Shown here: positions 3,095 to 60,320 of the stretch, in pieces
How the letters are laid out: the number at the start of each line of letters is the position of its first letter
How positions within the stretch are numbered: position 1 is the stretch's first letter
Assembly: GCA_040218735.1 (NCBI GenBank)
Contig: JAVJQW010000007.1
Span: forward strand, 96,001 to 160,000
DNA: 64,000 nucleotides
Source: Deltaproteobacteria bacterium
GTDB taxonomy: Bacteria; Myxococcota; Kuafuiibacteriia; Kuafuiibacteriales; Kuafuiibacteriaceae
Reading direction: 5' to 3'
Program-made: the position numbers and the translations under genes
Notes under the pieces: generated by a model
Database searches by the model: none
The model's input: the letters and a program-made list of their open reading frames with translations, nothing else
Told to the model about the DNA's origin: nothing

Positions 3095-3191
3095 CGTTGG
3101 CCGGAAGCAGACGCCGCGACGGGGTGGGGGTCAACAGCGTCGGGGATTTTGGGTACGGTCCGAGGCCGTGCCCCGCCGGTCCGAGCACCCC

Positions 3192-6386: not shown

Positions 6387-6396
6387 GGAGCAGCCA

Positions 6397-9602: not shown

Positions 9603-9620
9603 GCTCCGAGGACCTGCCTG

Positions 9621-12112: not shown

Positions 12113-13224
12113 AGCTGCTCGTCCTCACGTCCTACCCCGACCAGGCGGCGTGCACGCGGTTCAGGATCTCCGCGTTCATACCGGCGCTGGAGCGCGCCGG
12201 GATCGAGGTGCGCTCCGAGCCGTTCCTCGACAGCGATCTCTTCTCGACGTTCTACCGCGCGGGTTACCGACGGAAGAACGCGCTCGGCGTGGCGCGTGCG
12301 ATCGCCTCGCGCGTCGTGACCACGTTGCGCGCGCGACGGTACGACGGCGTGTTCGTGCAGCGCGAAGCCGCGCTCCTCGGGCCGGCCGTCACCGAGGAGC
12401 TCCTCGCGCGCGGGCTTCGGCTGCCTCTGATCTACGACATCGACGATGCCGTGTGGCTCGCCGGCCAGGGGGCCTCGACGAACGCTACCCGCTACCCGCT
12501 CCTGTCGCGGTTGCTGAAGGCGCCGAGCAAGTCGCTCCGATTGCTGAGCTTCGCGACGACGGTGATCGCCGGGAGCCGCTACCTCGCCGACTTCGCGTCG
12601 CGGTACTGCGCGCGCACCGAGATCATCCCGACGGTCGTCTCGCGCGAGACGTGGCGCCCGCTCCCCGGTCGGCTCGAGACCGCCGCGCTGTCGACGCCGC
12701 CGGTGATCGGGTGGATCGGTACCCACTCCACCGCTCCGCAGCTCGCGCTCGTGGCTCCGGCGCTCGCGAAGCTCCGCGCCGAGGGGCGCGAGTTCTCGGT
12801 GCGGGTGATCGGCGCCGGCGAGGACTTCACGCTCGACGGTGTCGAGCTCGACCGACGCCCCTGGTCGAAGGATCGGGAAGTGACTGAATTTCAGTCGCTC
12901 GACGTCGGCATCGCTCCGATGTTCAAAGACGAGTGGTCGGAGGGGAAGTGCGGCTTCAAACAGCTGCAATACATGGCCGTGGGGGTCCCGATGGTCACCT
13001 CCGTCGCCGGGGGCGCGCGCGACTTCGTCACCCACGGACAGAATGCGCTCGTCGCCGAGACCGAAGACGACTGGTATCCGCACCTCGCGGCGCTCCTCGA
13101 CGACGCAGCGCTACGGCGCCGCCTCGCCACGAATGGCCGTCAGCTGGTCGAAACGAGCTACTCCCGGGAGGCGGTCGAAGACCGCTTCGTCGCGATCGTT
13201 CGTGACACACTCGGGCGTACATGA
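12109..13224 (+). CDS. Glycosyltransferase family 4
   Basis: IYDIDDAVW, VIGWIG, GKCGFKQLQYMAVGVP; GTG start at 12109 overlaps the upstream stop. Confidence 0.88.
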   Translation: MKLLVLTSYPDQAACTRFRISAFIPALERAGIEVRSEPFLDSDLFSTFYRAGYRRKNALGVARAIASRVVTTLRARRYDGVFVQREAALLGPAVTEELLARGLRLPLIYDIDDAVWLAGQGASTNATRYPLLSRLLKAPSKSLRLLSFATTVIAGSRYLADFASRYCARTEIIPTVVSRETWRPLPGRLETAALSTPPVIGWIGTHSTAPQLALVAPALAKLRAEGREFSVRVIGAGEDFTLDGVELDRRPWSKDREVTEFQSLDVGIAPMFKDEWSEGKCGFKQLQYMAVGVPMVTSVAGGARDFVTHGQNALVAETEDDWYPHLAALLDDAALRRRLATNGRQLVETSYSREAVEDRFVAIVRDTLGRT

Positions 13225-13263
13225 ACGTCGCGTCCACCGCGTGACCCTGGCTACAATCAACCC

Positions 13264-28085: not shown

Positions 28086-28804
28086 TGCGCGTACTGATCG
28101 TGGACGACGAGGCGATGGCGAGGCGGCGCCTGCGCCGTCTTCTCGACGCGAACCCGGACGTCGAGCTCGCGGGTGAGTGTCAGGACGGGGCGGAGGTTCC
28201 GCAGCGGGTCGCGGCGGGCGACGTCGATCTCGTGCTCCTCGACATCCAGATGCGACAGATGAGCGGCGTCGAGGTCATGGGCCTCTTACCGTCCAACGGG
28301 CCGCTGGTGGTCTTCGTCACCGCCCACCCCGAGCACGCGGTGTACGCGTTCGACGCCGGCGCCGTGGACTACGTCGTCAAACCGGTGGAGGCGGGCCGGC
28401 TGCAGAAGGCGCTGGGGCGGGCGCGCGAGCGCATCGCGGCGCGCGCGCTGCGCGGCGGAGAAGACGAGGCGCAGACGCTCCCGGACCGCCTCCTCGTGCC
28501 GACGCGAAACGGGCTCCGCATCATCGCGCCCGAGCAGGTCCGCTACGCGATCGTCGACGGGCAGACGGTGCTGCTCCACACCGACCAGGGCTCGTTCGTC
28601 ACCGACTTCCGCCTCGTGGCGCTCGAGGAACGGCTCGGGGCGCCGTTCGTTCGTGTGCATCGCCGGGTGCTCGCAAACGTGCACCACATCGTCGCGCTGG
28701 AGCCCGTGGGCGCCGGGGTCTACGTCGCGGAGCTGTCCGACGGACAGACGGTCCCGGTGTCGCGTCAGTCGGCGAAGATCCTCCGCGCCCGCTGGAGCCT
28801 GTAG
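28085..28804 (+). CDS. LytTR-family response regulator
   Basis: VLIVDDE, LLDIQM, FVTAH, DYVVKP, FVRVHR, VPVSR. Confidence 0.92.
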   Translation: MRVLIVDDEAMARRRLRRLLDANPDVELAGECQDGAEVPQRVAAGDVDLVLLDIQMRQMSGVEVMGLLPSNGPLVVFVTAHPEHAVYAFDAGAVDYVVKPVEAGRLQKALGRARERIAARALRGGEDEAQTLPDRLLVPTRNGLRIIAPEQVRYAIVDGQTVLLHTDQGSFVTDFRLVALEERLGAPFVRVHRRVLANVHHIVALEPVGAGVYVAELSDGQTVPVSRQSAKILRARWSL

Positions 28805-28814
28805 GCTCGGATGG

Positions 28815-40977: not shown

Positions 40978-41039
40978 CCGAGGGCGCGTGAGACCCGGCA
41001 CGCTGGACTAAGTCTCGCGAGTGCGTTTGTTGGACGGTC

Positions 41040-41540
41040 GTGACCCCCCTCTTTCTCCTCGCGACGCTCGCCCTGACGGCCACCCCCGAGTCGCTCGTCT
41101 TCGTCGGCGACGCGTCGGTCGACATCGAGGGCATCTACGAGAAGGCGTTCACCAAGCAGCGGCTCGACGTCACGCTCACCAAGACCGACGACGGGTGGCT
41201 CGTCGCCTACGAAGGCAACGGCGTCGCCTGCCGCGTGAAGGCGACGGGGCCGCGCGACGCGATCGTGATCGCGCCGAAGCAGTCGTGCACCACGAAGGTG
41301 AACGATCGCGAGCACCGCGGAACCCTGGTCGCCTACGCGATCACCGGCACGCTGCGACGCGACGCCGACGGCAACGAGACCTTCGCGCTGTCCGCGCGCC
41401 TGCGCGCCGAGGACGCCTCGCGACACGTCCGGAAGGAGACGGTGCTCGGCACGATCGACACCTGGCTCCCGCTCGGCACACGCAGCGGGAGCGGGCGCTT
41501 CAAGGGAACACGTCCGCGCTCCGAGTCGTCGACCGATTGA
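41040..41540 (+). CDS. Hypothetical secreted protein
   Basis: Signal-like N-terminus, two Cys, beta-rich; fills the gap between Fpg and rffA. Confidence 0.55.
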   Translation: MTPLFLLATLALTATPESLVFVGDASVDIEGIYEKAFTKQRLDVTLTKTDDGWLVAYEGNGVACRVKATGPRDAIVIAPKQSCTTKVNDREHRGTLVAYAITGTLRRDADGNETFALSARLRAEDASRHVRKETVLGTIDTWLPLGTRSGSGRFKGTRPRSESSTD

Positions 41541-41542
41541 GC

Positions 41543-42667
41543 TCAGACGACGTCGAGCACGGCGGCGGCGATGGCGTCGACGGTGGCGTCGTCGATGCCG
41601 ACCCACAACGGGAGCCGGACGAGGCGCGCCGAGAGGTCGTCGGTGTGTTCGAGCGAGCCGCTGGTTCGACCGAAGCGTTTCCCGGCCGGCGAGGAGTGCA
41701 GGGGGACGTAGTGGAAGACGGCCATGTAGCCGTCGTCGCGCAGGCGCTTGATGACGTTCGTCCGCACGTCGAGCGACTCCGCGAGCACATAGTACATATG
41801 GGCGTTGTGCACGCGACCGTCCGGGATGATCGGCCGGCGCACGCGACCGTCCGCCTCCGCGGCGGCGAACGCGTCGTGGTAACGGCGCCAGATCTCCAGG
41901 CGTCGATCCGTGATCCCACGCGCCGACTCGAACTGCGCCCACAAAAACGCCGCGACGACCTCGCCGGGGAGGAACGAGGAGCCGACGTCGACCCACGTGT
42001 ACTTGTCGACGTCGCCGCGGAAGAACGCGCTGCGGTTGGTGCCCTTCTCCCAGACGATCTCCGCGCGCTCCGCGAGCTCCGCGTCGTTGATCAACAGCGC
42101 GCCGCCTTCACCCGAGATGATGTTCTTCGTCTCGTGAAAGGAGAGCGCGCCGAGCGAGCCCATCGTGCCGAGCGCGCGGCCTTCGTAGCTCGCGAGCGCG
42201 CCCTGGGCGGCGTCTTCGATCACCATGATCCCGCGCGCGTTCGCGATCTCGAGGATCGCGTTCATGTCGCAGCCGACGCCCGCGTAGTGCACGACGACGA
42301 TCGCCTTGGTGCGTTCGGTGATCGCGGCTTCGATCTTCGACGGGTCGACGTTCAAGCAGGACGGCTCGACGTCGACGAACACCGGGACCCCGCCGCGGAG
42401 CACGAACGCGTTCGCGGTGGACACGAACGTGTACGAGGGCATCACGACCTCGTCGCCGGGCTCGATGCCCGCGAGGATCGCGCACATCTCGAGCGCGGCG
42501 GTGCACGAGTGGGTGAGGAGCGCCTTGTGCGTGCCGGTCGTGTCCTCGAGCCACTTCTGGCAGCGCTTCGTGAACTGACCGTTGCCGGCCGTCTGCCCCG
42601 CTTGGATGGCCTCCTGGATGTACTGGAGCTCCAGGCCCGTCGCGTACGGTTTGTTGAACGGGATCAT
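41543..42667 (-). CDS. rffA: dTDP-4-amino-4,6-dideoxygalactose transaminase
   Basis: MIPFNKP, SCTAALEM, TFVSTANAF, EDAAQ, SFHETKN (PLP Lys), EKGTNR, VFHYVPLH. Confidence 0.93.
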   Translation of the reverse strand: MIPFNKPYATGLELQYIQEAIQAGQTAGNGQFTKRCQKWLEDTTGTHKALLTHSCTAALEMCAILAGIEPGDEVVMPSYTFVSTANAFVLRGGVPVFVDVEPSCLNVDPSKIEAAITERTKAIVVVHYAGVGCDMNAILEIANARGIMVIEDAAQGALASYEGRALGTMGSLGALSFHETKNIISGEGGALLINDAELAERAEIVWEKGTNRSAFFRGDVDKYTWVDVGSSFLPGEVVAAFLWAQFESARGITDRRLEIWRRYHDAFAAAEADGRVRRPIIPDGRVHNAHMYYVLAESLDVRTNVIKRLRDDGYMAVFHYVPLHSSPAGKRFGRTSGSLEHTDDLSARLVRLPLWVGIDDATVDAIAAAVLDVV

Positions 42668-42704
42668 CGGCCCCAACATATCCGGGGCCCGCGCGCCGGT
42701 CGAC

Positions 42705-45482
42705 TCAGGAGCCCATGATCTCGTCCATCAGGAGATCGCCGAGCATTCGCGGCAGCTTCTCGGTGTTCTCGACCACCATGCTGTGCTCGTACGTCGTCGG
42801 CACCTGCTGACAGCCGGCGCCGATCCCGATCCCGATGATCTTGATGTCGGTCTCCTGAGCGACGGTGCGCACGGCCTGGTTGTGGTTCGCGACCGCCGCG
42901 CCGTCGGAGAGGAAGATGACGATCTTCTGCTCGGCCGGGCTGTCCTCCAGCATCTGCCGCGCGGCGTCGAGCGCGGCCGTGTCGTTGTTGCCGCCACCGC
43001 CGCGGAGCTTCCCGAGCATCTGCTCGCGCTCCTCCTTGGACTTGTCCTCCTCGATGGGCTTCAGGACCGAGACGCCGCTGTTGTACATCACGACGCCGTT
43101 GCCAACGCCGATCTCGCCGAGCGACTCGAGGAACACCACGAACGCCTCGCGCGCGAACTCCATCTTGCTGTTCGCGCCGTTACCCATCGAGCCGGAGCAG
43201 TCGATGCAGAACACGACCTCGACGCTTCGCTCGCGCGGCTCGTCGCGCTTGAGGAAGATCCGCGGGTCGCCGCGCCCCGTCGCCTGCCGTCGGAACTCAC
43301 TCTGGATCGCCTTGCGGAGATCGTAGACGCCGCCGCGGAAGTGACCGATCAGCTCCGGGATGTCGTCGCGCTGGAAGAAGTTCGTCAGCTCGTCGACCAT
43401 CTCCTGGATCGCGCGTTTGTGTTTCTTGGCGATCTGGTCGTAGGCCGTGAGGTGCGTCCCGTCGTCGCGTCGGTTGCGGATCTTGTCGTCGTAGGTCTTG
43501 AGCAGCTCGTCGAGATCGACCTCGTCGTCCCCGTCGTAGCCGAGCTCGGGCGACGCGCCGGACGCGCCGGTCGTCTCCCACTCACGCTCCGTGACTTTCG
43601 GTCCACCGCTGCGGCCGACGTCCTGGTTGCCGACGTCGCCCGGGTCGTAACCCTCGCGGTCGAGCTCGGCGTCGTGGATCTTGCCGCCCATGTCGCGCGC
43701 GTCGCTCCGTAGCGACTTCGCGAGGGCCTCCTTCGCGGCCTTCGTCGCGGCGTCGTCGGTGTCCTGCACCTCGAGCGGGTTGTCGGGGATCGTGTCGACG
43801 TCGATCGGGTCCTTCCCGTCGGCCGCCATCCCGTGCTCGCCCGTGGGGCGCCCGCCGTTCGCGGCCTTCGAGCCCGCCTTGGCGTCGCCGTCGCTCGGCT
43901 CCGCCGTCCCGGAGCCGCCGCCGCCCGCACCCTCGGACGCCTCGGCGCCCTGCGCGTTGCCGTTGCCGCCGGCGCCTTGCGACTCGCCGCTCCCGTTGGC
44001 TTGCCCCTGGCCGCTGCCCTGTGCGCCGCTCGCGTCGTCGCCGCCCTGCGCGCCCTGCGCATCGCTGCCACCCTGCGCGCCGCCGGCGTCCTGCGCGTCA
44101 CCGGGCTGTTCGCCGCCCTGCGCGCCGCCGGCGTCGTCTGCGCCGTTGGCGTCGTCGCCGCCCTGTGCACCGTTGGCGTCCTGCGCGCCATTGGCGTCCT
44201 GCGCGTCGTCTGCACCGTTGGCGTCGTCGGCGTTCTGCGCGCCGTTCGCATCGTCGGCGTTCTGCGCATCTTCGGCGCCGTTGGCGTTCTGCGCGTCGTC
44301 GGCGCCGTTGGCGTTCTGCGCGTCTTCGGCTCCGTTCGCGTCTTCGGAGCCGTTGGCGTTCTGCGCGTCGTCGGCGCCGTTGGCGTCGTCGGCGTTCTGC
44401 GCGTCGTCTGCGCCGTTGGCGTTCTGCGCGTCGTCTGCGCCGTTGGCCTCGTCGCCGTCCTGCGCGCCCTTCGTGTCCTGCGCGCCGTTCGCGTCGTCGC
44501 CCTTCTTGTCGTCCGCGCCCTGCGACGCATCACCGCTGTCGCGAGAGGACTGCTCCTGCCCGGGCACGTCGGGCGAGGCCTGCTTCTGGGCGTCGAGCCC
44601 GTCCTGCACGTCCTGGTCGAGCAGGCGCTTGTAGATCGGCCAGATCTCGTCGCGGATCACCTCGAAGGAGTGCGCCGCTTCGACGTCCGCCTCCGTCCCG
44701 TCCAGCTCGTCGAACCGCAGGTCGATGTCCGGCGGCAATCGCGTCGCCTTGGCGATCGCGTCGCGCGCTTCGTCGAGCGCCGCGATCACGTCCGGGTCCT
44801 TCACCATCGGATCGCGATCGCCGCCGCTCGCCCACTCGTAGATCGCCGCGAACCCGAACTGCTTCGACTTCGGGACCGTCTTCCCCTGCGCCGCGAACTT
44901 GTCGTACTGCTCCTGCCGTTTCTCCAGATCCAAGAAGTCGCGGTACAGCTCCTTCATCATGATCGGGACGCCCGCGTAGCGCCGGCTGATGATCCGGTTG
45001 ATCCGGATGTCCTCGAGCGAGTTCCACAGGAAGTGGAACGCGGGGTTCTTGATCCGGTCGTCCTTCGGGAGCCGCGAGTACAGCCGGTGCGCGAGCTCGT
45101 GGCAGATCACGCCCATGTTGGAGCGATCGTTTCGCTTCAACATGTCCTTCACCGGGTACGTGATCTTGTTCGAGTCGAAGTGGTACGCCCACCAGCCGCC
45201 GGGCTCCAACTTCATCGAGAAGTCCTTGCCCAGCGTCCGCGCGAGCGTCGAGAGCCGGCGGTGCATCTGCTCCTGCCGACGGAAATCCAACGTCGGATCC
45301 CCGGCGACGCCGCCGTCCTCGTCGAGCTTCGGCACGACCGGGACGGTTCCGTGGAGTCGGCGCTCGAAGCCGCCCTTCACCCCCTGCATCCCCGTCGCGG
45401 CGCGCCGAACGTCGAGCACCGAAGTCCGCGCGTTGCCGAGGTTCACGCCGCGCGTAGGTCCCTTGCCGATCGTGACCATCAC
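42705..45482 (-). CDS. vWA/MIDAS protein with HExxH metallopeptidase-like domain and acidic repeat linker
   Basis: ICHELAH...NSLEDIRI; ~250-aa D/A/N/Q/G-rich linker; C-terminal VVFCIDCSGSM...GGGNND...IFLSDG...IIGIGIG; GTG start overlaps the upstream stop. Confidence 0.88.
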   Translation of the reverse strand: MMVTIGKGPTRGVNLGNARTSVLDVRRAATGMQGVKGGFERRLHGTVPVVPKLDEDGGVAGDPTLDFRRQEQMHRRLSTLARTLGKDFSMKLEPGGWWAYHFDSNKITYPVKDMLKRNDRSNMGVICHELAHRLYSRLPKDDRIKNPAFHFLWNSLEDIRINRIISRRYAGVPIMMKELYRDFLDLEKRQEQYDKFAAQGKTVPKSKQFGFAAIYEWASGGDRDPMVKDPDVIAALDEARDAIAKATRLPPDIDLRFDELDGTEADVEAAHSFEVIRDEIWPIYKRLLDQDVQDGLDAQKQASPDVPGQEQSSRDSGDASQGADDKKGDDANGAQDTKGAQDGDEANGADDAQNANGADDAQNADDANGADDAQNANGSEDANGAEDAQNANGADDAQNANGAEDAQNADDANGAQNADDANGADDAQDANGAQDANGAQGGDDANGADDAGGAQGGEQPGDAQDAGGAQGGSDAQGAQGGDDASGAQGSGQGQANGSGESQGAGGNGNAQGAEASEGAGGGGSGTAEPSDGDAKAGSKAANGGRPTGEHGMAADGKDPIDVDTIPDNPLEVQDTDDAATKAAKEALAKSLRSDARDMGGKIHDAELDREGYDPGDVGNQDVGRSGGPKVTEREWETTGASGASPELGYDGDDEVDLDELLKTYDDKIRNRRDDGTHLTAYDQIAKKHKRAIQEMVDELTNFFQRDDIPELIGHFRGGVYDLRKAIQSEFRRQATGRGDPRIFLKRDEPRERSVEVVFCIDCSGSMGNGANSKMEFAREAFVVFLESLGEIGVGNGVVMYNSGVSVLKPIEEDKSKEEREQMLGKLRGGGGNNDTAALDAARQMLEDSPAEQKIVIFLSDGAAVANHNQAVRTVAQETDIKIIGIGIGAGCQQVPTTYEHSMVVENTEKLPRMLGDLLMDEIMGS
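44020..44500 (-). repeat. Intragenic 27/18-nt tandem repeats encoding (ANGADDAQN/D)n
   Basis: Plus-strand unit gcgccgttggcgttctgcgcgtcgtc(t/g) recurs many times with variants. Confidence 0.9.
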
Positions 45483-45892
45483 TCGACCTCACTCGCCGGA
45501 GCGACCGTCGCGCCCTCGGCCGACATCACCATCGGGAACATGGACGCCACCGGCTCGTCCGGTCGCGCCGGCGCGAGCGCCACCACGCGGAGGTCGTCGC
45601 GCACCGTCCCGTCGACGAGCTGTCCCTCCAACACCTGGGACAGCACGCCGCGCGTCGCGTCGTCGACCGACGCGCCGAGCCACACGAGGAGCGTCGAATC
45701 CTCCGCGATGCGCTCGGACACCGCCTGGTCGAGGTCGGCCTCCGACAGCTCGTCCGTCCGCAGATCGAGTGGCCGAGCGCCGGGCAGGCCCGCGCGGAGC
45801 GCGCGGTGCACGGCCTCGTTCGCGCCGAAGATCAACACGGAGCTGCGGCTGCGCAGGATCGTGTCGAGGAGCGTGGAACCCGCCGTACTCAC
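45479..45892 (-). CDS. Small protein resembling a degenerate AAA+ P-loop core
   Basis: GTGA overlaps with both neighbours; SVLIFG, LLVWL, GVLSQVLEG...LRVVALA follow AAA strand order but without GKT or DE. Confidence 0.65.
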   Translation of the reverse strand: MSTAGSTLLDTILRSRSSVLIFGANEAVHRALRAGLPGARPLDLRTDELSEADLDQAVSERIAEDSTLLVWLGASVDDATRGVLSQVLEGQLVDGTVRDDLRVVALAPARPDEPVASMFPMVMSAEGATVAPASEVE

Positions 45893-48800
45893 TTCGCGAT
45901 CTCCTGTGCCTTCTCGAGGATGACGTCGTTGTCTTCGTGGTGGCTCGATGCTGCGTACGTCGCCTGCACCGCGAGCAGGTACGCCGTCGCCGGGCCGAGC
46001 TCGCCGGAGAACTCCGAGACGAGGTTCGTCGCGTTCATCAGCTGCCGCACGGAGTAGACGGGGCGGTCACGCTCGCGCATGTCCTTGCCGAGGGTCTCGT
46101 CCTCGTACGCCGACTGAATCCACATGTGCAGATCCACGAGCGTGTCGGTGATCGCCTCGCTCACGCCCTTCGCCTTCCCGAGGGCGCGCAGGATCTCCTT
46201 CTGCTCGTCCGCTTCGTCGAGGTCCGGGACCGCGATCATCGTGAAGCGGTTCTGCATCGCCTTGCTGAGCTTCGAGCGCCCGCCGTACTCCTTCGTCGGC
46301 GGGTTCATCGCCGCGATGAACCTGAACTGCGGGTGCAGGCGAACCTCCTCGCCCTCCTTCTCCGCGAGGACGATCTTACGTTCGTCGTCGAGCACGGAGT
46401 TGAGGCGCTCGAGGAGCGCCGGGTTCGCGAGGTTGAACTCGTCACCCACGAACACCCCCGGGACGTTCTCGGGGCGCGCCGCGTCGAGGAGGAGGCCGTC
46501 CTTCCAGCCCGTGTCGTCGTAGCCGCCGATCAGCTGCATGCCGTCCGTCGAACCCGAGAGCAGCTGCCGCTGGTACGGCTGTCCGCGGAGCATCGCGAAC
46601 ATCTTGGCCATCGCCGTCTTGCCGGACGCGCGCGCGCCGACCATCGCGACGTTCTCACCCATGTCGAGCGCCTTCGCGAGGCGGTACATGATCTGCGTCG
46701 TCCGCTTCGTCATCACCAGCCGCGCCGACTCACCCGGGACGAGCGCGTGCTCCGCGTTCACCTTCGCGAGCGTGACGTCGCCGATCGTGAACGTGTCCTT
46801 GTCCTCCTTCAGCTCGAGGTCCTCGTAGAAGTCCGGTCCGGTGTACGGCATCGCCGCGGTGAGGATGTCCTTCACCGTCTGCACGTCTTCGGGATCGAAC
46901 AACCCGCCGAGGTAGAGCTCCTCGACCTCACGACGCATCGCCGCTTCGTCCGAGAGCTCCCCACCGCTGTAACGCACGAACCGATCCGCCGCGCGGAACA
47001 GGTTGCGCAGCGTGAACGCCACGCCGCCGCTCTGGCGCCCGATCTCACCCTCGTCCGCGAGACGCGAGAGGTTGTCGTGCACCGCGACCAGCTTCGCCAT
47101 CTCCTCCGTGGGGAGCTTCGAGCCGTAGACCGTGCTCATGATCTGCGTGAGATCCGAGCGGGTGAGCCCGTGCGCGAAGACGTTGTTCCAGCGCGATCGC
47201 ATCGCGTCCGACAGACGCGCGCGCCCCGAGTACGACGCGGGGTTCATCGTCGCGAACAGCCGGAAGTTGTCGTCCGGCGCGATGACCTCGTTGTGGTGCT
47301 CGGTGAGGACCACGTTGCCGTCGTCGTCGAACAGCGAGTTCAGCCGCTCGAGCACCTCCGGTCGCGCGAGGTTCATCTCGTCGAGGAGAAGCACCTCGCC
47401 CTTCTTCATCGCGCGGATGACGGGACCGTCCACCCAACGCGGCTTGAGCTGCGCGGCGAGGATCTGATCCGAGGCGACTTCGCGCGAAGCACCTTCGGGC
47501 ACGCCGTACTCTTCGGACACCGCGGCGAGCTCGGCGTCGGACATCTTGTCGAGGTCCGGCTTGCTGTACCGGTTCTCACCGCCCACGTACTTACCGAGGA
47601 GGTCCGAGACATCCGTGAAGTACGACAGGTTGATCCGGCGGTACGGCGAGTTGGTCTTGTACGCGAGGTACCGAACCGCGGACGTCTTGCCGGAGCTCGT
47701 CGGACCCTCGAGGAGGACCGGGCGCTTCTGCCGCCACGCCGCGGCCATCAGCTTCAGGTTGAGCTGCGTGGTCCGCGTCATCACGAGATCCGAGTGCTGC
47801 TTGCGCGGCACTGCGCGCGTGTCGCGATCCGTACGCGAGTTCTCGGCGACCTCGACGCCGGCCACCGTCACCGTCTTCGTCCCCTCCGGGAACGGACGCT
47901 TCGCCTCGAACAACGCCGCGGCCACGCCGCCGAGCTCCTGGTCGGCCTGCGCGAGCGGGAGCACGTTGGCGAGGTCCGCCTGGTACAGCTGACCGAGCGC
48001 CGTCCGCGCGAGCGCTTCGACGTCCGCGAACTTGCCGCCGTCGAGGACACCCTCGACGAGCGCCTTGGCGGCGTCGTCCTTCTTCGCGACGCCGGCCTTG
48101 ATGTGCGCGGTCACCGCGCCCTCGACCTTCGAGAGCGCCTCGGGCGCGAGGAGCGCGACCGTCTCCGGACGCAGCGCAGCGCGGAGGTTTTCGAGGGCCC
48201 CCTCGTCGGCGTCGGCCTTCGCCTTCAGGAAGTCGATGATCGTCTTCCGCTTGGCGCTGCCTTCCTTCGCCGCGGCCGCCTCGTCGAGGAGCGCCTCGTA
48301 GAGGCCGACCGGATCGGCCTCTGCCGATGCGTCGTGGAGGGTCTCGAGGTCCTTGGTCGTCACCTCGCTCCCCGTGAGCGCCGCGCGGATCGGGAGGCTC
48401 GTGAAGTCCGCCTCGTCGCGGATGCTCAGGAACGGCGCGAGCGTCGTGCGGAGCTCCTCGCCGCTCATGCCCTGGAGCTTGCCGGCGACGTTCGCCCAGG
48501 CCTTCGCGCTGTCTTCGTCTACGCCTTCGCGCTCCAGGGCCGTCTGGATTCGGTCGGGGGAGATTCGCGTCGTCAGCGCCAACAGGATCGGACCGACGAC
48601 CACGTGCGGCCACGCGTCGAGCACGTTCTCTGCGATCGACAGCTGCGCCTCGATGTTCACGCCCGACATCGAGCCCGGCTCGAGCTTGCCGTCGGCGATG
48701 GCGTCGATGACGCGCGGGAGGAGCTCGGACAGCTCCGGTCGCTCGTCGTCCCACGCCAACATCCCCAGCACGGCGTTGCGACGCTGCGCGTGCGAGACGT

Positions 48801-51063
48801 CGGCGGCTGGATCGAGCGCAGCGAAGTGTTCGTCGAGCTTCGTCTTCGCGGCCTTCGACAGCGAGTCGGGGCGGCGCAGCGCCTTCATCCGCGGGTCGTC
48901 GGTCAGCGGGTAGTTCGTCCCGTCCTGCCGATACAATCGAACGTGCTCGAAGTCGACGCTGGCGGCCTTCGCCATCCGCGCGATCTGCGGGATCGTGTCG
49001 TCCAGCACCATGTTGTACGGGACCTGCGCGAGGAACGCCTGCGCTTGCGCCTGCGCCTGGTTGCCGTCGGGCAGCTTCCCATCGGCGGCGAGCTCGACGA
49101 TTCGAGCGACGGCCGTGAACGCACGCGCGTCACTGCCGTAGTGGTTGAACCAGCTGCTCGGGTTCCCGACGTTGTACATGTCGCGCGCGAGCGCTTCGTC
49201 CGACGCCTCGAAGAGCTTGGGGTCGCGCGCCTGGTACGCGGCGTTCGCGTCCGGGTGGTTGCCGAGCGGCTTTCCTCCCGGGACGTCGTACTGCACGACG
49301 CGCTGGCGCGGGACCTCGCCCATCGCCCCCGCGCGGAGCTGCGCGAGACGTGACTGTCCCGCCTTGAACGCGCCGACCTGTCCGAGCGTCACGCCGACCG
49401 TCGTCGACCAGTTGATGGCCTGCGCGCCGAGGCCGGCCTTCTCGACGAGGCGCGCGACGTGCGCCATCACATCGGCGTCGTTGACCAGCGAACCCTGGAT
49501 GCGCTGCTGCACGAAGTGTTGCAGGTAGGTCGCGTCGAACTGCCCCAGCTCGATGCCGCGCTCCCAGAGCTTCAGCACGCCGACCGTCCAGCCCTTGTCC
49601 TGCGCCGAGTCGTTCGTCGACGGGAAGTGGTACGGGGACTGGTAGGTCGAACGGACGTGCGCGACCGACGCGTCGTCGATCGCGAGCGCGCTCGCGTCGT
49701 AGACGCCGAAGCGCTGCTGTACGACCTGCGCGTTCGCGAGGCTCTCGGTCCCGGCGGGGCGCTTCCCGAGCTCGACGCGCACGCGTCCGCCCGCGGTGGG
49801 GAGCGGGCGACCGTGGAACTCGGTCGACTCGATCGCGTGCTCCGCACCCGCCGCGGCCATCGCGCGCGCGAGGACCGCCGCCGCTTCCTCGGTGTCGGGG
49901 AGGACCTGCGCGATGGCCGGCCAGTCGGTCATCGGCGCCGGGTTGCCGACCTCGGCGAGCCGGGCCCACAGGCGGAGCATCGCGACGCGCACCTCGCCCG
50001 TCTTCGGCTCACCGAGCCGGACCAGCCGGTTGTCGTTCATGAAGCTCTCGTAGTTCTGCCAAGTCTGGGCGAGCGACCGCACCGCGTCGTCGCTGAGCGC
50101 GAGCTGGTCGACCTGCCCGGCACGCGCCGCGTTGATGACCGCTTGGTTGTTTCCCGTTTGCGTCCCCAGGGCTTCGCTCCGCTCCACCGTGCTTCGACGC
50201 CGGGCGCGCTTCGACGTGGCCTCGGGTAGCTGCGGCCCCCACTCGGAGAGCGGCGCGCCGTGGAAGGTCACGTTCGCGGGGTCCTCACCGCGCGCCTTCA
50301 CCAGGCGAAGCGCGACGGAAGCGCCCTCGTCGGTCTTCGGGAGCCGCGCGAGTGATTGCGCCCAGTTCGTGACGTTGCACCCGTTCTGGTTCGTGAGGCC
50401 GAGCTCGTTGACGCGGGCGAAGATCCTGAAGTGCGCGATTACCGTCGGTTCGTCCCTCGCTTCCGCCAGCGCTTGCTCGAGGTTGTTCCACCAGGAGGGG
50501 GAGATCTGCGTCCGGATGGTGTCGTCGTCGATCGCGAGTTTGTCGGCGTTACCGCCCTGCCGCGCGAAGTTGATAAGGTTGGTCGCGTTGTCCGCGGTCG
50601 TTCCGAGCGCCTCGGCGGGCTCGGCTTCGAACGGTTTGACGAAGTCGACCGACGCGCGGAGCAGGTCCGCGAGATCCTCCGGCACCGAGACGTCGCCCAA
50701 GAACTCGGCGATCGCGCGGAGCAGCTCTGGGTGGTCCGCCATGCGGCGCGCGACCTTCAGAGACGGGTAGTAGTTGCGCAGCGACGCCTGCGGATCGATC
50801 CCGGTGTTGGCGACGCGACCGCCGAACGTCATCTTGGTCGACGCCTCGGCCCGCGCGACCTGGAGCAGCTTCTTCGCCTTCGCCAGCCCGACGTCGTGCT
50901 CGAGCTTCCCGGCCGGCTCCGAGAAGAAGAGCTGGCCGTCCGACACGAAGATGTCCCCACGGTCGGGCGTCGCGCGGACACGCGCCGCGTTCTGCGCGCC
51001 GTCCGTGCCTTCGAGTCGAGCGGTGGGTCGGGGGTCGATGCGACCTGGAATGGAGGTGGTCAT
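45889..51063 (-). CDS. Giant AAA+ ATPase with two tandem midasin/dynein-related (AAA_5) modules and novel N-terminal repeats (start may be 51090)
   Basis: Module 1: GPTSSGKT, LLLDEMNLA, FATMNP, AMRSRW. Module 2: GARASGKT, FVGDEFNLA, IAAMNP, AMQNRF. Confidence 0.92.
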   Translation of the reverse strand: MTTSIPGRIDPRPTARLEGTDGAQNAARVRATPDRGDIFVSDGQLFFSEPAGKLEHDVGLAKAKKLLQVARAEASTKMTFGGRVANTGIDPQASLRNYYPSLKVARRMADHPELLRAIAEFLGDVSVPEDLADLLRASVDFVKPFEAEPAEALGTTADNATNLINFARQGGNADKLAIDDDTIRTQISPSWWNNLEQALAEARDEPTVIAHFRIFARVNELGLTNQNGCNVTNWAQSLARLPKTDEGASVALRLVKARGEDPANVTFHGAPLSEWGPQLPEATSKRARRRSTVERSEALGTQTGNNQAVINAARAGQVDQLALSDDAVRSLAQTWQNYESFMNDNRLVRLGEPKTGEVRVAMLRLWARLAEVGNPAPMTDWPAIAQVLPDTEEAAAVLARAMAAAGAEHAIESTEFHGRPLPTAGGRVRVELGKRPAGTESLANAQVVQQRFGVYDASALAIDDASVAHVRSTYQSPYHFPSTNDSAQDKGWTVGVLKLWERGIELGQFDATYLQHFVQQRIQGSLVNDADVMAHVARLVEKAGLGAQAINWSTTVGVTLGQVGAFKAGQSRLAQLRAGAMGEVPRQRVVQYDVPGGKPLGNHPDANAAYQARDPKLFEASDEALARDMYNVGNPSSWFNHYGSDARAFTAVARIVELAADGKLPDGNQAQAQAQAFLAQVPYNMVLDDTIPQIARMAKAASVDFEHVRLYRQDGTNYPLTDDPRMKALRRPDSLSKAAKTKLDEHFAALDPAADVSHAQRRNAVLGMLAWDDERPELSELLPRVIDAIADGKLEPGSMSGVNIEAQLSIAENVLDAWPHVVVGPILLALTTRISPDRIQTALEREGVDEDSAKAWANVAGKLQGMSGEELRTTLAPFLSIRDEADFTSLPIRAALTGSEVTTKDLETLHDASAEADPVGLYEALLDEAAAAKEGSAKRKTIIDFLKAKADADEGALENLRAALRPETVALLAPEALSKVEGAVTAHIKAGVAKKDDAAKALVEGVLDGGKFADVEALARTALGQLYQADLANVLPLAQADQELGGVAAALFEAKRPFPEGTKTVTVAGVEVAENSRTDRDTRAVPRKQHSDLVMTRTTQLNLKLMAAAWRQKRPVLLEGPTSSGKTSAVRYLAYKTNSPYRRINLSYFTDVSDLLGKYVGGENRYSKPDLDKMSDAELAAVSEEYGVPEGASREVASDQILAAQLKPRWVDGPVIRAMKKGEVLLLDEMNLARPEVLERLNSLFDDDGNVVLTEHHNEVIAPDDNFRLFATMNPASYSGRARLSDAMRSRWNNVFAHGLTRSDLTQIMSTVYGSKLPTEEMAKLVAVHDNLSRLADEGEIGRQSGGVAFTLRNLFRAADRFVRYSGGELSDEAAMRREVEELYLGGLFDPEDVQTVKDILTAAMPYTGPDFYEDLELKEDKDTFTIGDVTLAKVNAEHALVPGESARLVMTKRTTQIMYRLAKALDMGENVAMVGARASGKTAMAKMFAMLRGQPYQRQLLSGSTDGMQLIGGYDDTGWKDGLLLDAARPENVPGVFVGDEFNLANPALLERLNSVLDDERKIVLAEKEGEEVRLHPQFRFIAAMNPPTKEYGGRSKLSKAMQNRFTMIAVPDLDEADEQKEILRALGKAKGVSEAITDTLVDLHMWIQSAYEDETLGKDMRERDRPVYSVRQLMNATNLVSEFSGELGPATAYLLAVQATYAASSHHEDNDVILEKAQEIAK

Positions 51064-51236
51064 CCTTAAAGCGCCTACATCGGATGACATTACGGCTGCG
51101 GAAAATTCGCAAGTGACCGCGGCTGACGATGTTTGAGCGGCGTATCCGCCAAGTGCGCGAAACGACTGGGCGGAGAAGTTGCTAGAAAATACGGCGCCTG
51201 AATACGTAGGACAACGGGCGCTGCGCGGCTGCGCGA

Positions 51237-52205
51237 TCAGGTGCGCTCGGCGGGTGACCCGTGGTCAGCCCACGTTCGCTCGCGGACGATGAAGATCGGG
51301 CGACGCTTCACCTCGGTGAAGATGCGATCCACGTACAGGCCCAGGACGCCGAGCGTGAAGATGATCGCGCCCGTCGAAAAGTTCAGCGACACCATCAGCG
51401 ACGGCCACCCCATCACCGGGCTGCCGTACACCAATGCGCTGAAGAACAGGTACGCGCCCCCGAGCACCGACAGACCCGCGAGCGCGATCCCCAACCCCAC
51501 GCAGAGGCGCAGCGGTTTGTTCGAGTAGGCGAGGATGATCGGGATCGCCATCCGGAACAGCTTGAGGAGTGTGTACGACGACTCACCCGCGTGTCGCGTC
51601 GCGTGTTCGACGTCGATGTACGCCTTCTTGAAGCCCATCCAGTTGAGGAACCCGCCGTAGAAACGCACGGCTTCTTCCATCTGCAGGAGCTGCCGCACGA
51701 CCTGCCGCGACACACACGAGAAGTTCGCGACGCTGCCGTCGTAGTTCAGGTCGGTGAGGTAGTTGAACGTGGCGTAGAACATCACGGAGCTCATCTTCTT
51801 GCTCCACTTGTCCTGACGCTGCGCGCGCCGCGCGAGCACCACGTCGAAGCCCTCCTGCGCCTTCGCGTACAGGCGCGGGATCTCTTCGGGGCGATCCTGG
51901 AGGTCGCAGTCCATCACCACGATCCAGTTCCCGCGCGCCGATGCGAGGCCCGCGGTGATCGCCGGGTGCTGCCCGAAGTTGCGCGACAGCTGCTGCCCGC
52001 GCACGCGCGGATCCTTCGCGGCGATCTCTTGGATGCGCGCCCACGAGTCGTCCGGGCCGCAGTCCTCCGTGAGGATGATCTCGAAGTCCTCGGTGATCGT
52101 CTCGAGGTTTTCGACGAGCCGGCGGTGCAGCTCGTCGAGGCACCCGGCGCCGGCGTAGACCGGCACGACGACGGAGATCTCCAGCCGGTCGTCGGGCTCG
52201 GCCAT
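51237..52205 (-). CDS. Glycosyltransferase family 2 (GtrB/ArnC-like polyprenol-phosphate glycosyltransferase)
   Basis: ISVVVPVY, LSRNFGQHPAITAGL, MDCDLQDRPE, two C-terminal TM helices, EVKRRPIFIV. Confidence 0.9.
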   Translation of the reverse strand: MAEPDDRLEISVVVPVYAGAGCLDELHRRLVENLETITEDFEIILTEDCGPDDSWARIQEIAAKDPRVRGQQLSRNFGQHPAITAGLASARGNWIVVMDCDLQDRPEEIPRLYAKAQEGFDVVLARRAQRQDKWSKKMSSVMFYATFNYLTDLNYDGSVANFSCVSRQVVRQLLQMEEAVRFYGGFLNWMGFKKAYIDVEHATRHAGESSYTLLKLFRMAIPIILAYSNKPLRLCVGLGIALAGLSVLGGAYLFFSALVYGSPVMGWPSLMVSLNFSTGAIIFTLGVLGLYVDRIFTEVKRRPIFIVRERTWADHGSPAERT

Positions 52206-52247
52206 CGCGATCCAAGTCTTAGCGGAAATGAGCGGAGCGTTCACGTT

Positions 52248-53555
52248 TTAGCCGTCCTCGCGCCGCCAACGGTCCCAGCCCAGGACGATGACGTACGCCG
52301 CAAACGCGCACAGGAACAGGTAGACCGGCTGGGAGTAGCGCGGCTCCGTGCTGTGCAGCGGAAGGAAGATGAGCGTGTTGTAGACGATGGGGATCGCGAG
52401 CCACGCGAGCCAGGAGCGCCGCCAGACGGAAATGAGCAGCCCCGCCCACCCCAGCAGAACGATCGCGCTGTTGATCGCGAACAGCGCCGCCTTGAAGACC
52501 CACCACGCGGGTGCGCCGTAGGCGAGGAAGCTCGGCCGGAAGCTGAACACGTCGAAGCGCGTGCCGAACCACATCTGCGGGGCGCGGTAGAGCCAGCGCC
52601 CGAGCACCGCGAACGGCTCTTCGCGGTAGCGGTCGAAAGCCAGCTTGCGCATCGCTTTGTCACGCGGCGCGTCCTTCAGCTTCAGCGCGTCCTCGACCTC
52701 CGCCTTCTCGTCCGGGGTGCGGAACGAACCCGCGGGGGGGCCATCATCGAAGCCGCCCTTCACGAGCCAGTCGCCGTTCGTCTCCCACGTCCCGATCCAC
52801 AGCCCCTGTCCGAGGATGCCCTTGCTCACCGGGATGATCTGTCCGGAGACGTGGTGGTTGCGCGCCGTCCACGGGGCGATCGCGAGGATCGCGCCGCACA
52901 CGAGCAGCGCCGCAGAGCCCAGCCTTCTCTTGAGTGGAATCTCCTCGACCCACCCGTGCACGAAGTCGAACGGGAGCAGCACCGCCGTGAACGGGATCAG
53001 CGCGAGGTACACGTCTCGCGTGAGCGCGGCGAGGCCGAGCAGCGCACCCATCCCGAGCCACGCCGCGCGGTGTTTCCACAGCACGGGGAGGGCGACCGCG
53101 GCGACGAGGAAGAACGTCGTCAGCGTCTCGGAGAGCATCGCGCCCGCGTAGACCGCGTTGGCGGGGACGAGCGCGCCGAGCCACAGCGTCCACCGCGCGA
53201 TGCGCGTGACGAGGAGCTCCACCGTCTTCGCGCAGAGGACGACCGTCGCGGTGCTGATCACGACCTGCGCGAGCTGCACCGCGAGCGGCGCGCGCCACAC
53301 GCGGTAGAGGAGCGCGACGAAGCCGGGGAACAGCGGCGGCCGGTAGTACGTCGGCGCGATCGGCGGCTCGAGCGACAGCGAGAACGTCCCGTGGTCGACG
53401 AGGTTCTTCGCGAGGTGGTCGTACCAGAAGCTGTCGCCGGTATCGAAGCGGTAGGCGACCAGCACCAACATCACCAGACGCACCGCGAGCGCGACGACGA
53501 CCGCGAGCCAGACCTCGTTCCGATCGAGCCGGTACTGGGGGCCGTACGCACGCAC
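52248..53555 (-). CDS. ArnT/PMT-like GT-C membrane glycosyltransferase
   Basis: DSFWY, RPPLFP, LSETL, PWTARN, EPRY; multi-TM. Confidence 0.8.
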   Translation of the reverse strand: MRAYGPQYRLDRNEVWLAVVVALAVRLVMLVLVAYRFDTGDSFWYDHLAKNLVDHGTFSLSLEPPIAPTYYRPPLFPGFVALLYRVWRAPLAVQLAQVVISTATVVLCAKTVELLVTRIARWTLWLGALVPANAVYAGAMLSETLTTFFLVAAVALPVLWKHRAAWLGMGALLGLAALTRDVYLALIPFTAVLLPFDFVHGWVEEIPLKRRLGSAALLVCGAILAIAPWTARNHHVSGQIIPVSKGILGQGLWIGTWETNGDWLVKGGFDDGPPAGSFRTPDEKAEVEDALKLKDAPRDKAMRKLAFDRYREEPFAVLGRWLYRAPQMWFGTRFDVFSFRPSFLAYGAPAWWVFKAALFAINSAIVLLGWAGLLISVWRRSWLAWLAIPIVYNTLIFLPLHSTEPRYSQPVYLFLCAFAAYVIVLGWDRWRREDG

Positions 53556-58992: not shown

Positions 58993-59189
58993 CCGGCTGA
59001 CGAAGTCAGCCCTGCCCCAGCCCGAGCCCCAGCCCTCTCAGGAACGAGGGCAAGGCCCCCACCGATCACCGACCGCCGCTCCGTCATCACGGCATCGAAA
59101 CGAGTGCTTCGTCCCACTCTCCTCGACAGCCCCTAGGATCGGCCGCCGATAGCCCAGGCCGTGCAGACCTGCCTACAACAGACCTCGCG

Positions 59190-60320
59190 ATGATGCTTCG
59201 GGCCTCCTCGGTGCTCCTGTCCCTCCTCCTATGCGCGTGCGCGCAGGAGATCGTCGTGTCGAACGACGGCGGGACGAGTGACCGCGACGCAGGCGAGGGC
59301 GCGCGCGACGGCGGCCACGCCGACGCCGGTACGATCGACGGCGGCGCCCGTGACGGTGGCACCCGCGACGGCGGCGGCGCGCCCCGCGACGGCGGAAGCG
59401 TGCGCGACGCCGGGACGCCGACCGGGCCCCTGACCTGGGGCCAGGCGATCCTCCCCACCAACTCGCGCGGCGTGAATGTGATCTGGGGCCGCTCGGCGGC
59501 CGAGGTCTACGCGGGCGCGGGCCTCTACCTGCTCCGCTTCACCCCCGACGACGGCTGGACCCGCGTTTGGAACAGCCCGTCCAACTTCGACATCGTCGGC
59601 ATCGGCGGGACGACGTCGCGTCTGTTCGTCGCCGACCGCGGCGGGCTGCACGTCTTCGACGGTGACCCGGAGACGACGACGCCCGACTACTATTCCTTCC
59701 CACAGACGCAGCAGGTCGAGGCGTTGCTCGTCCGCAACGCCAACGAAGCGTACCTCACGATCACGCAGTTCAACGGGCGCGCGCTCCTGCGATTCGACGG
59801 CACCGAGCTCCGTCCGCTGTTCCAGCCGAACGACGTCTCGACGCTGACCTCCCTCGACGAGGTCGACGGCACGATCTACATGGGTGCGAACGGGCACCTG
59901 TACCGCGTCGCGACCGGCGTCGTGAGCGAAGAGACGGTCGCTTGGCCAGCGCACTGGCAGGAGATCGACCAGCTGATGTTCGAGTTCCACGGTGTCGCGA
60001 AGATTGGCGCGCGCGTGTTCGCGGTGGGCGACGACGACATGATCTTCGAGCGTGGCCAGGACGACACCTGGCGCCTCGTGCGTGGCAACGGTGCGCCGTC
60101 GATGGCGCTCGAGGACGTCGCGAGCTTCGGCAACTACGGCGTCGCGGTCGGCCAGCCGGGCCCCGACAACCGCCCCTTCCGAGTGTTCGACGGCACCGGC
60201 TGGACGAACCAAGCGGGCCCCGACGCCGTGCTCTACACGGTGTGGGCCGCCGGCCCGAACACCTGGTTCGCGGGCGGCTACGTGAGCATCGACGGCATCA
60301 TCCTGCACGGCACGCGCTGA
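59190..60320 (+). CDS. Lipoprotein with RDGG/DAG linker and beta-propeller-like domain
   Basis: Lipobox LCAC; linker RDAGEGARDGGHADAG...RDGGTRDGG; IWGRSAAEVYA and VWAAGPNTWFAGG repeats. Confidence 0.75.
   Translation: MMLRASSVLLSLLLCACAQEIVVSNDGGTSDRDAGEGARDGGHADAGTIDGGARDGGTRDGGGAPRDGGSVRDAGTPTGPLTWGQAILPTNSRGVNVIWGRSAAEVYAGAGLYLLRFTPDDGWTRVWNSPSNFDIVGIGGTTSRLFVADRGGLHVFDGDPETTTPDYYSFPQTQQVEALLVRNANEAYLTITQFNGRALLRFDGTELRPLFQPNDVSTLTSLDEVDGTIYMGANGHLYRVATGVVSEETVAWPAHWQEIDQLMFEFHGVAKIGARVFAVGDDDMIFERGQDDTWRLVRGNGAPSMALEDVASFGNYGVAVGQPGPDNRPFRVFDGTGWTNQAGPDAVLYTVWAAGPNTWFAGGYVSIDGIILHGTR

Follow-up and report, generated by a model that had tools for sequence, protein, structure and literature searches.

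To our knowledge, midasin and dynein are the only well-studied motors that carry six AAA modules in one chain, and the question raised here is whether three genes of a bacterium encode a relative of midasin. The genes lie in a stretch of 64,000 nucleotides (the window, to which the positions below refer) of contig JAVJQW010000007.1, from the 11.6-Mb genome (69% GC) of a Deltaproteobacteria bacterium of the phylum Myxococcota (assembly GCA_040218735.1). They encode a tandem AAA_5 ATPase (P0001), a small protein (P0002) predicted to be AAA-like, and an adaptor (P0003) that ends in a von Willebrand factor A (vWA) domain with a metal-ion-dependent adhesion site (MIDAS). On balance, and as far as sequence comparison goes, both ATPase modules group with midasin. 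The observation of this gene set is itself confirmed, and its interpretation in terms of midasin is, overall, partly supported.

Midasin and dynein are treated as eukaryotic inventions from single-module MoxR-like bacterial ATPases in the available portions of PMC3495828 and PMC5100056. Likewise, midasin is described as eukaryotic, and MoxR-like ATPases as prokaryotic precursors, in those of PMC3495828, PMC7159879, PMC5100056 and PMC13036017. Our literature search, which covered the main texts of articles, gave no account of a tandem ATPase of midasin type in bacteria that is paired with a separately encoded MIDAS protein. Bacterial relatives may be mentioned in the work of Garbarino and Gibbons from 2002 or that of Iyer et al. 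from 2004. Fragments of the family carry the automatic JGI name 'midasin (ATPase involved in ribosome maturation)', which presumably corresponds to the label COG5271/MDN1; the similarity to midasin had thus already been registered by annotation pipelines. The three genes and their parts are as follows.

45889-51090, minus strand: gene 1, encoding P0001, an open reading frame (ORF) of 1733 aa from the ATG at 51090
48481-50613, minus strand: divergent N-terminal repeats of P0001 (residues ~160-870), from local alignments against shuffles
46852-47793, minus strand: core and lid of AAA module 1 of P0001 (residues 1100-1413), from the module hidden Markov model (HMM) envelope and AAA_lid_7
45892-46725, minus strand: core and lid of AAA module 2 of P0001 (residues 1456-1733), from invariant residues and AAA_lid_5
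45479-45892, minus strand: gene 2, encoding P0002, an ORF of 137 aa
42705-45482, minus strand: gene 3, encoding P0003, an ORF of 925 aa
44583-45302, minus strand: zincin-like, CobT-like N-domain of P0003 (residues 61-300), from an AlphaFold2 (AF2) model and Foldseek
43803-44582, minus strand: acidic low-complexity tether of P0003 (residues 301-560), from composition and tandem DNA repeats
42708-43565, minus strand: pre-vWA extension and vWA/MIDAS domain of P0003 (residues 640-925), from Pfam VWA, CobT_C and a profile search against the PDB

The original prediction, made from the letters of the sequence, had placed here three minus-strand genes joined by GTGA overlaps: a large protein with two tandem AAA+ modules behind N-terminal repeats, a 137-aa 'AAA-like remnant', and a 925-aa protein with an HExxH domain, an acidic linker and a vWA domain. 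The ORFs, the junction reads and the G+C content at third codon positions (GC3) bear out this gene layout, and the protein features are all found as well. The junction of genes 1 and 2 reads AAGTGAGT, a GTGA overlap, while that of genes 2 and 3 reads GAGTGATGG, which is either a GTGA overlap or, with an ATG start, a 1-nt TGATG overlap. The Atlas record takes the ATG as the start of gene 3, and for gene 1 it uses an alternative start, ATG 51063, which gives 1724 aa and coincides with the end coordinate of the original prediction. The three genes are translationally coupled. Their GC3 is 0.92-0.93 (0.92 for each of genes 1 and 2), and the GC pattern over codon positions is gene-like for the host genome.

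Affinity of the motor modules

Pfam places two AAA_5 modules in P0001 (5.5e-39), with Walker A sites at residues 1129 and 1485, and two lids of families described as 'midasin AAA lid', namely AAA_lid_7 at residues 1313-1413 (25.8 bits, cut-off 22.7) and AAA_lid_5 at residues 1643-1697 (23.1 bits, cut-off 22.7). Module 1 carries an insert of ~45 aa at residues 1170-1217 ahead of its midasin-type lid (1313-1413), and its diagnostic residues are G1129, K1135 and T1136 in Walker A, D1237 and E1238 in Walker B, followed by N1283, R1290 and R1300. The corresponding residues of module 2 are G1485 and K1491, D1550 and E1551, N1596 and R1615. In all 25 of 25 family members, the Walker A and B motifs of the two modules, their sensor-1 Asn and several of their Arg residues are invariant, and both modules of gene 1 therefore look catalytically competent. 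The protein has just these two Walker A sites and two module envelopes, versus six modules in midasin.

Searched against the PDB with phmmer, P0001 matches midasin at 2.3e-102 in nine stretches, whereas the other families follow at 1e-9 (CbbQ and NorQ), 2e-5 (CobS) and 3e-5 (dynein). Beyond the family's own members, the best database matches are eukaryotic midasins, at 25-32% identity. We also scored candidate relatives with a family HMM built from the family's two module cores. Midasin D2-D5 reach 107-167 bits, D6 84-103 and D1 53-89; CbbQ/NorQ reach 80-100 and CobS-like modules 71-84; and the MoxR-, RavA-, GvpN- and MadB-like proteins of the host's own genome remain at 26-45 (MoxR-like 34-45). 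By these scores CbbQ/NorQ and CobS are much nearer to the bacterial modules than MoxR proper, and the scores alone give no clean split of CbbQ/NorQ/CobS from the weaker midasin modules. Other matches of P0001 are a borderline one to bpMoxR (27.1 bits, cut-off 27) and one to the CobS family TIGR01650 at 38.6 bits, for which the cut-off is 558. A word-index search with module 2 alone returned, besides one BRCT-AAA protein from an alphaproteobacterium, only fragments of this family, and no single-module outgroups.

Outgroup modules were drawn from the host's own genome, its relatives and plasmids, and all seven of the CbbQ/NorQ/CobS-like ones have the CbbQ_C lid (CbbQ/NorQ 4/4, CobS-like 3/3) and none a midasin lid. 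Pfam gives no CbbQ_C lid in P0001, and AAA_lid_7 is present both there and in the Oligoflexales homologue at locus L006.

In a maximum-likelihood (ML) tree of module cores together with lids (79 modules x 273 columns), a single clade (support 88/93) holds all midasin modules together with both bacterial modules and further multi-module proteins from bacteria, and within it module 2 is sister to midasin D2/D4/D6 (89/76) and module 1 falls among the odd-type modules. On this alignment the approximately unbiased (AU) test rejects a grouping of the bacterial modules with CbbQ/NorQ (dlnL 20.3, p-AU 0.025), a result that may be inflated, as CbbQ_C and midasin lids align poorly. The tree of cores only (82 modules x 170 columns) recovers the clade of midasin and bacterial modules at 64/64 with its deep nodes unresolved, and here the grouping with CbbQ/NorQ is not rejected (p 0.259). 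The groups put to the AU test had been chosen after earlier trees were viewed. Neither alignment rejects monophyly of all midasin modules (p 0.251 core-only, 0.122 core+lid) or of module 1 with module 2 (p 0.26 and 0.0895, respectively). In both trees CobS stands outside the midasin clade, CbbQ/NorQ are the nearest single-module prokaryotic relatives, and the bacterial modules form clades of their own (core-only 99/99 and 100/99; core+lid 100/100 and 100/99) outside all six midasin module clades. These trees were built without the six modules of a 4107-aa protein from the same genome (long branches; described below) and without P0035, P0032, P0017, L007, P0018, P0058, P0046, P0012 and P0023; the core+lid tree additionally omits the RavA-, MadB- and GvpN-like rows. 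The assignment of the modules to the midasin type, as opposed to MoxR, CobS or NorQ, is supported by the PDB and HMM scores, the lid type and the core+lid tree with its AU test.

Upstream of the modules, the N-terminal region of P0001 is helical and contains divergent repeat units of ~135 aa. In pairwise local alignments against 100 shuffles, z-scores are 21.3 for units A1/A2, 5.1 for A2/A3, 3.9 for A4/B and 2.8 for A3/A4, so that the repeats named in the original prediction are real, with z = 21 for units 1/2 and z = 5 for units 2/3. This region is lineage-variable, and the sensor-like regions of relatives differ, with leucine-rich repeat (LRR), MORN and F5/8 type C domains among their precomputed Pfam labels.

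The MIDAS adaptor and the small protein

The C-terminal VWA domain at residues 756-889 (6.2e-14), with the motif DCSGS at residues 761-765 (43188-43202), is the only one that Pfam finds in P0003, apart from a marginal CobT_C match (21.4 bits, cut-off 21). The D, S and S of the MIDAS and a later D are invariant in nine of nine adaptor homologues. A profile of residues 640-925 searched against the PDB finds Rea1-MIDAS (6qt8_A) at 2.2e-11 over profile positions 32-173, with an alignment that extends through a conserved extension of ~85 residues preceding the vWA core; the next match is CobT (1.6e-6), and there is none to NorD within 0.01. NorD is otherwise a weak PDB match of the adaptor (0.0022). 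The likeness of this domain to the MIDAS domain of midasin thus includes the N-terminal extension.

The N-domain is of another kind. Its AF2 model, with a predicted local distance difference test (pLDDT) score of ~90 over residues 61-300, shows a small sheet and an HExxH helix, the motif being HELAH at residues 128-132. Foldseek against the PDB gave no match at E <= 0.001, the weak best ones being the zincins selecase and LTA4H, and against the viral library BFVD it gave phage 'CobT' and 'VWFA' proteins of 600-800 aa (2.5e-5 and 6.6e-4). A Pfam CobT match, below threshold, occurs in three of nine adaptor homologues (best E 0.013), and an Atlas search with the adaptor likewise gives a CobT-like lead. 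A profile of the N-domain found nothing credible among PDB sequences (best E 0.53), and a word-index search with it returned three proteins only. E129 and H132 are invariant across the nine homologues, and H128 is replaced by Arg in the two from Oligoflexales (L006 and L007). Because the first His of HExxH is lost in two of nine homologues, a peptidase role of this domain is doubtful, and with it the proteolysis that had been proposed as a possible outcome of substrate tethering. The description that suits the adaptor best is that of a protein with a CobT-like N-domain and layout and a midasin-like MIDAS domain.

Between the two domains, the tether consists of A (23%), G (22%), D (17%), Q (10%) and N (9%), with 21% D+E and a net charge of -47, and it is encoded by a tandem repeat with a 27-nt period in 11.4 copies at 44140-44447. 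Homology of this low-complexity tether to the D/E-rich region of midasin cannot be shown. Metagenome contigs from a near-identical strain break within the repeat DNA (window 44099-44420), and at loci L001 and L003 the adaptor ORF is likewise split in the tether region. The repeat seems to disturb assembly, and its length may vary or be misassembled.

P0002 has no match in Pfam, NCBIfam or PADLOC. Among 1.84 billion representatives, 15 relatives were found at E <= 0.001, 14 of them proteins of 132-200 aa; the remaining one, P0151 (3228 aa), is an adhesin-like repeat protein (Calx-beta, RTX, VWA) and was rejected as spurious. The AF2 model of P0002 (pLDDT 85.2) is a five-stranded alpha/beta domain, for which Foldseek against the PDB places RuvB on top (4.5e-4), then ATAD1, an axonemal dynein chain, HslU and RFC; among the matches listed, all are AAA+ large domains. 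The family alignment is without a P-loop and without the Walker B acid pair. Judging from the modelled fold, gene 2 encodes a degenerate AAA+ core that lost its nucleotide motifs, as the description 'AAA-like remnant' had implied.

We modelled P0002 in complex with the AAA region of P0001 (residues 1090-1733). The interface score ipSAE was 0.76 (runs 0.77, 0.75 and 0.76), while the best of three controls scored 0.00; the calibration mark for this score is passed by 58 of 80 solved complexes and by 2 of 110 mismatched pairs. The runs share at least 88% of their contacts, with a partner pLDDT of at least 80. In the predicted complex, P0002 contacts module 2 at its lid (residues 1674-1729) and at the face of its ATP site, near Walker A and B (1487-1492 and 1550), through a surface that includes the nearly invariant R81 of P0002. 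In concatenated AAA rings this place is taken by the next module's large domain, so the small protein may serve as a third, dead position of the ring or may cap module 2.

Occurrence and gene neighbourhood

Nine related loci (L001-L009) were fetched from 185,579 species genomes. An adaptor homologue that retains both the N-domain and the vWA domain adjoins the ATPase gene in eight of them, the exception being L009. In the five high-GC loci in which the ATPase gene is followed by the vWA gene (L001-L005), a small ORF stands between the two and overlaps the ATPase stop by 4 nt; tblastn with P0002 finds two of these ORFs, and the rest are positional equivalents of similar size. Both Oligoflexales loci are without the small ORF, and at L008 the adaptor gene lies upstream of the ATPase gene. 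Of the proposed triad, then, the ATPase-vWA pair is widely kept and the small gene only in part. In an all-against-all comparison of the window with L001-L008, distant loci have nothing in common beyond the ATPase, the vWA protein and the small ORF. The family's hosts are metagenome-assembled genomes (MAGs) of Myxococcota and Oligoflexales, at 44-75% identity, and the closest homologues are in those of Myxococcota.

At E <= 1e-40 the tandem ATPase occurs in 7 of 401 sampled genomes of the phylum, the window's own included, and it was not found in a genome of the same genus that is 75% complete. The DegT and GT2 (glycosyltransferase family 2) orthologues of that genome lie on separate short contigs, and insertion of the gene module is not demonstrable by comparison. 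Within the host genome, tblastn with the three proteins at 1e-5 matched nothing beyond the genes themselves. The three genes form a rare, self-contained accessory module. Near-identical DNA is present in runs of eight studies (sponge, aquaculture, biofloc and biofilm metagenomes), one of which may be the window's own source. In a sponge run, two long contigs span 41000-44099 and 44420-52500 with 28 and 51 differences, so that this gene order is also present there independently.

Two of the loci call for separate description. L005 (positions 2741-14176, Myxococcaceae MAG) has two tandem-ATPase genes flanking one adaptor gene, the first of which appears to be broken into two ORFs that overlap (2741-4576 and 4401-6998); a frameshift or an error of assembly may be the cause. 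L009 (positions 10028-12244), on a 1.07-Mb contig of a Cyclobacteriaceae MAG, encodes a 738-aa ORF with two AAA modules and no adjoining vWA gene. Its modules nest in the eukaryotic D3 and D4 clades (99/87 and 99/91 core-only; 99/89 and 98/90 core+lid), and this ORF, by its sequence placement, must be either a eukaryote-derived midasin fragment or contamination of the MAG.

Around the locus, a 146-bp spacer of lower GC separates gene 1 from an upstream glycosyltransferase gene, and a gene for a DegT-family aminotransferase starts 25 bp downstream of the gene module. These and the other polysaccharide-type neighbours in the window (GT2, methyltransferase, DegT, GT4, carbamoyltransferase, carAB) are not conserved partners of the module. 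A promoter scan at the locus gave 0 promoter-like sites, and a terminator scan 2 terminator-like sites versus 6.2 expected. Within the cluster of glycosyltransferase, methyltransferase, carbamoyl-phosphate synthase and carbamoyltransferase genes sit two ORFs without a Pfam match, of 435 aa (52248-53555, minus strand, GC3 0.94) and 439 aa (59001-60320, plus strand, GC3 0.88). Elsewhere in the window, a 1158-aa ORF (28263-31739, plus strand) combines PPDK_N, the ATP-binding domain of pyruvate phosphate dikinase, with a weak match to a response-regulator receiver; it is followed by a 703-aa ORF without a Pfam match and two glycosyltransferase genes.

A proposed machine, its rivals and a possible link to midasin

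We consider it probable that genes 1 to 3 specify one ATP-driven protein-remodelling machine of the AAA_5/vWA-adaptor class, with its motor modules and MIDAS domain in the midasin branch. Its modules would close a six-position ring, either as three copies of modules 1 and 2, the trimer of the original prediction, or as two copies of modules 1 and 2 plus the small protein; the predicted position of P0002 suggests the latter as a possible alternative stoichiometry. By analogy with NorQD, CbbQO and Rea1, the vWA/MIDAS domain of gene 3 would dock on the ring formed by genes 1 and 2, and the MIDAS ion would grip an acidic residue of a target protein. ATP hydrolysis would pull or twist the target through the acidic tether, and the variable N-terminal region of gene 1 would select or anchor it. 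In the available part of PMC13036017, the vWA finger of NorQD is described as entering the NorQ hexamer's pore, and CbbQO and Rea1/Mdn1 as similar; in these systems the ring acts on its adaptor. Grouping with CobS, NorQ or MoxR, a lack of conservation of the gene set, and a failure to interact were none of them found, the interaction having been examined in silico and for the small protein with the ATPase only, where binding was predicted.

Several observations weigh against this reading, beginning with the weaker core-only tree and the reservations given above on lid alignment and on the choice of the AU groups. The first ~1090 residues of P0001 have no Pfam family, and an Atlas search with them gave no usable match. 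The succession of N-domain, acidic tether and C-terminal vWA, in which the original prediction saw the domain order of midasin spread across separate genes, is indeed present, but because the adaptor N-domain is CobT-like, the same layout is also that of CobS/CobT. The ipSAE of 0.76 may stem, at least in part, from a generic mode of AAA-AAA packing that the predictor took from solved rings, since such packing is abundant among solved structures. Because the small ORF is absent from both Oligoflexales loci, the small protein cannot be essential to the core mechanism. Finally, short contigs (178-283 nt) of a biofloc metatranscriptome run (X21) lie on all three genes, and under a 31-letter rule none of them bridges a gene junction; this is a weak hint of transcription, with DNA carry-over possible.

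A serious rival, even if we judge it unlikely, is a conflict system (anti-phage or anti-predator/prey) of the NTPase-vWA kind, in which the N-terminal region would sense an invader and the ring would activate or release an HExxH protease effector. Such an arrangement would resemble the MoxR-vWA ternary systems found in multicellular bacteria, which, in the available part of Kaur et al. 2020 (PMC7159879), are described from such hosts and share with our locus a MoxR-class AAA protein with a vWA partner, multicellular or predatory hosts, patchy occurrence and variable accessory domains. The patchy occurrence of the gene module (7 of 401 genomes of the phylum, and not found in the 75% complete genome of the same genus), its lack of conserved neighbours, the varied LRR, MORN and F5/8 type C regions of relatives, the social or predatory Myxococcota and Oligoflexales hosts and the borderline bpMoxR match all fit this explanation. 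However, the third component of the ternary systems (VMAP, iSTAND, FtsH/CCC or beta-propeller) is absent from the conserved genes and was not seen in the flanks; the third gene here is an AAA-like remnant, and the ATPase, with its tandem modules, is of midasin type and does not belong to MoxR proper. Moreover, PADLOC-DB 2.0 gave only weak P-loop matches (at best 3.5e-4, across 40 residues) and left genes 2 and 3 without any, no mobile-element genes were present among the scanned ORFs around the locus in the window, and the replaced His of HExxH in two of nine homologues speaks against a protease effector.

Distinctly less probable is a divergent chaperone for metal insertion or enzyme activation, akin to CobS/CobT or CbbQ/CbbO-NorQ/NorD, with a duplicated ATPase module and a metalloenzyme client. 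The adaptor lends itself to this view: it has the CobS-CobT and phage/plasmid layout of N-domain, acidic stretch and C-terminal vWA, the CobT_C match just above its cut-off, the weak CobT N-domain match in three of nine members, the fold match to phage CobT-like proteins (6.6e-4) and the match of its vWA profile to CobT in the PDB (1.6e-6). The ATPase, too, has CbbQ/NorQ and CobS as its nearest single-module relatives, with the core-only AU test leaving a CbbQ/NorQ grouping standing. CbbQ-CbbO and NorQ-NorD likewise pair an AAA_5 ATPase with a partner ending in a vWA domain, and their finger-in-pore mechanism is the one taken as a model above. Yet CbbQ and NorQ are single-module homohexamers with a CbbQ_C lid (4/4 tested), and CobS, whose ATPase has one module and a lid of the CbbQ_C type (3/3 tested), falls outside the midasin clade, whereas the motor here is tandem with midasin-type lids, and the core+lid AU test rejects the CbbQ/NorQ grouping (p 0.025). 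Genes for CbbQ and NorQ adjoin those of their client enzymes, but beside our gene module there is no conserved client gene, be it for CobN, Rubisco, NOR or another enzyme; no CobN-like gene was present among the scanned flanking genes, the whole genome not having been searched for CobN. Nor do these chaperones have a counterpart to the N-terminal region of ~1000 aa or to the extra AAA-like protein.

That the ATPase is a fragment of a eukaryotic midasin gene, recently acquired by horizontal transfer and uninformative on midasin origins, is very improbable: such transfers or contaminants exist, as the L009 ORF illustrates, and eukaryotic midasins are the best database matches after the family itself, but both bacterial modules, unlike those of L009, stand in their own clades outside each midasin module clade, identity to midasins is only 25-32%, GC3 (0.92) is host-typical, the MIDAS adaptor has a gene of its own and a CobT-like N-domain, and the family spans Myxococcota and Oligoflexales at 44-75% identity.

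The proposed remodelling machine and midasin both have AAA_5 modules with midasin-type lids, an alternation of compact and insert-bearing modules, and an acidic tether ahead of a MIDAS domain with an intact DxSxS, and among solved structures midasin is the best match for the motor (2e-102) and for the MIDAS domain with its pre-vWA extension (2e-11). They also differ. The bacterial ATPase has two AAA modules, whereas midasin has six in one polypeptide; the MIDAS adaptor and the degenerate AAA domain are separate polypeptides; the linker domain of midasin is missing; the adaptor bears a CobT-like HExxH N-domain and the motor a variable N-terminus of bacterial type; and bacteria are without pre-60S substrates, the maturation of which by midasin, through ligands with a UBL domain (Ytm1/Rsa4), belongs to a eukaryotic pathway.

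Other proteins with midasin-clade modules turned up alongside the family. P0019 (2810 aa), a putatively bacterial metagenome protein, has six such AAA modules, and P0037 (2864 aa), from a Candidatus Omnitrophica MAG, has four together with a VWA domain. Odd and even modules cluster separately in both, which makes two alternating types, and the pair suggests that concatenated rings of midasin type have radiated more widely in bacteria. P0136 (449 aa, Alphaproteobacteria MAG) combines one midasin-clade module (136 bits with the family HMM) with an N-terminal BRCT domain. In the genome of the present host but outside the window, a 4107-aa ORF (L022:6647-18967, equivalent to G000:C58:46646-58966) has a fused midasin-like layout with four AAA_5 stretches (six weak family-HMM envelopes), AAA_lid_7 and two C-terminal VWA domains. 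Midasin is its best PDB match (8.7e-24), with CbbQ at 4e-6, and it represents a lineage distinct from the window genes, without a tblastn cross-match at 1e-5.

One possible hypothesis, which we offer as tentative, is that the family is a surviving bacterial relative of a pre-midasin state, in which a two-module gene (odd plus even) worked with a separate CobT-like MIDAS adaptor, and that triplication of this unit and fusion of the adaptor gave six-module midasin. A two-module ancestral unit fits the alternating module types and the places of modules 1 and 2 in the core+lid tree, but neither monophyly of all midasin modules nor that of modules 1 and 2 is rejected; such a unit is favoured, not shown. 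The evolutionary link to midasin that had been suggested for this locus is in the same position, being favoured by the ML tree while monophyly of the midasin modules is not rejected (p-AU 0.12-0.25).

If the hypothesis is true, the separate dead AAA domain, predicted to lie beside module 2, would be an example of how degenerate ring positions, as in dynein and midasin, arise. The locus offers a small, expressible model for the assembly of concatenated, partly degenerate AAA rings and for the way in which a ring drives a tethered MIDAS domain, and it makes the order of duplication, degeneration and fusion testable by structure and phylogeny. Evolution aside, it would represent an accessory machine, so far uncharacterised, in social and predatory bacteria, and as a system it may show how six-module motors were built.

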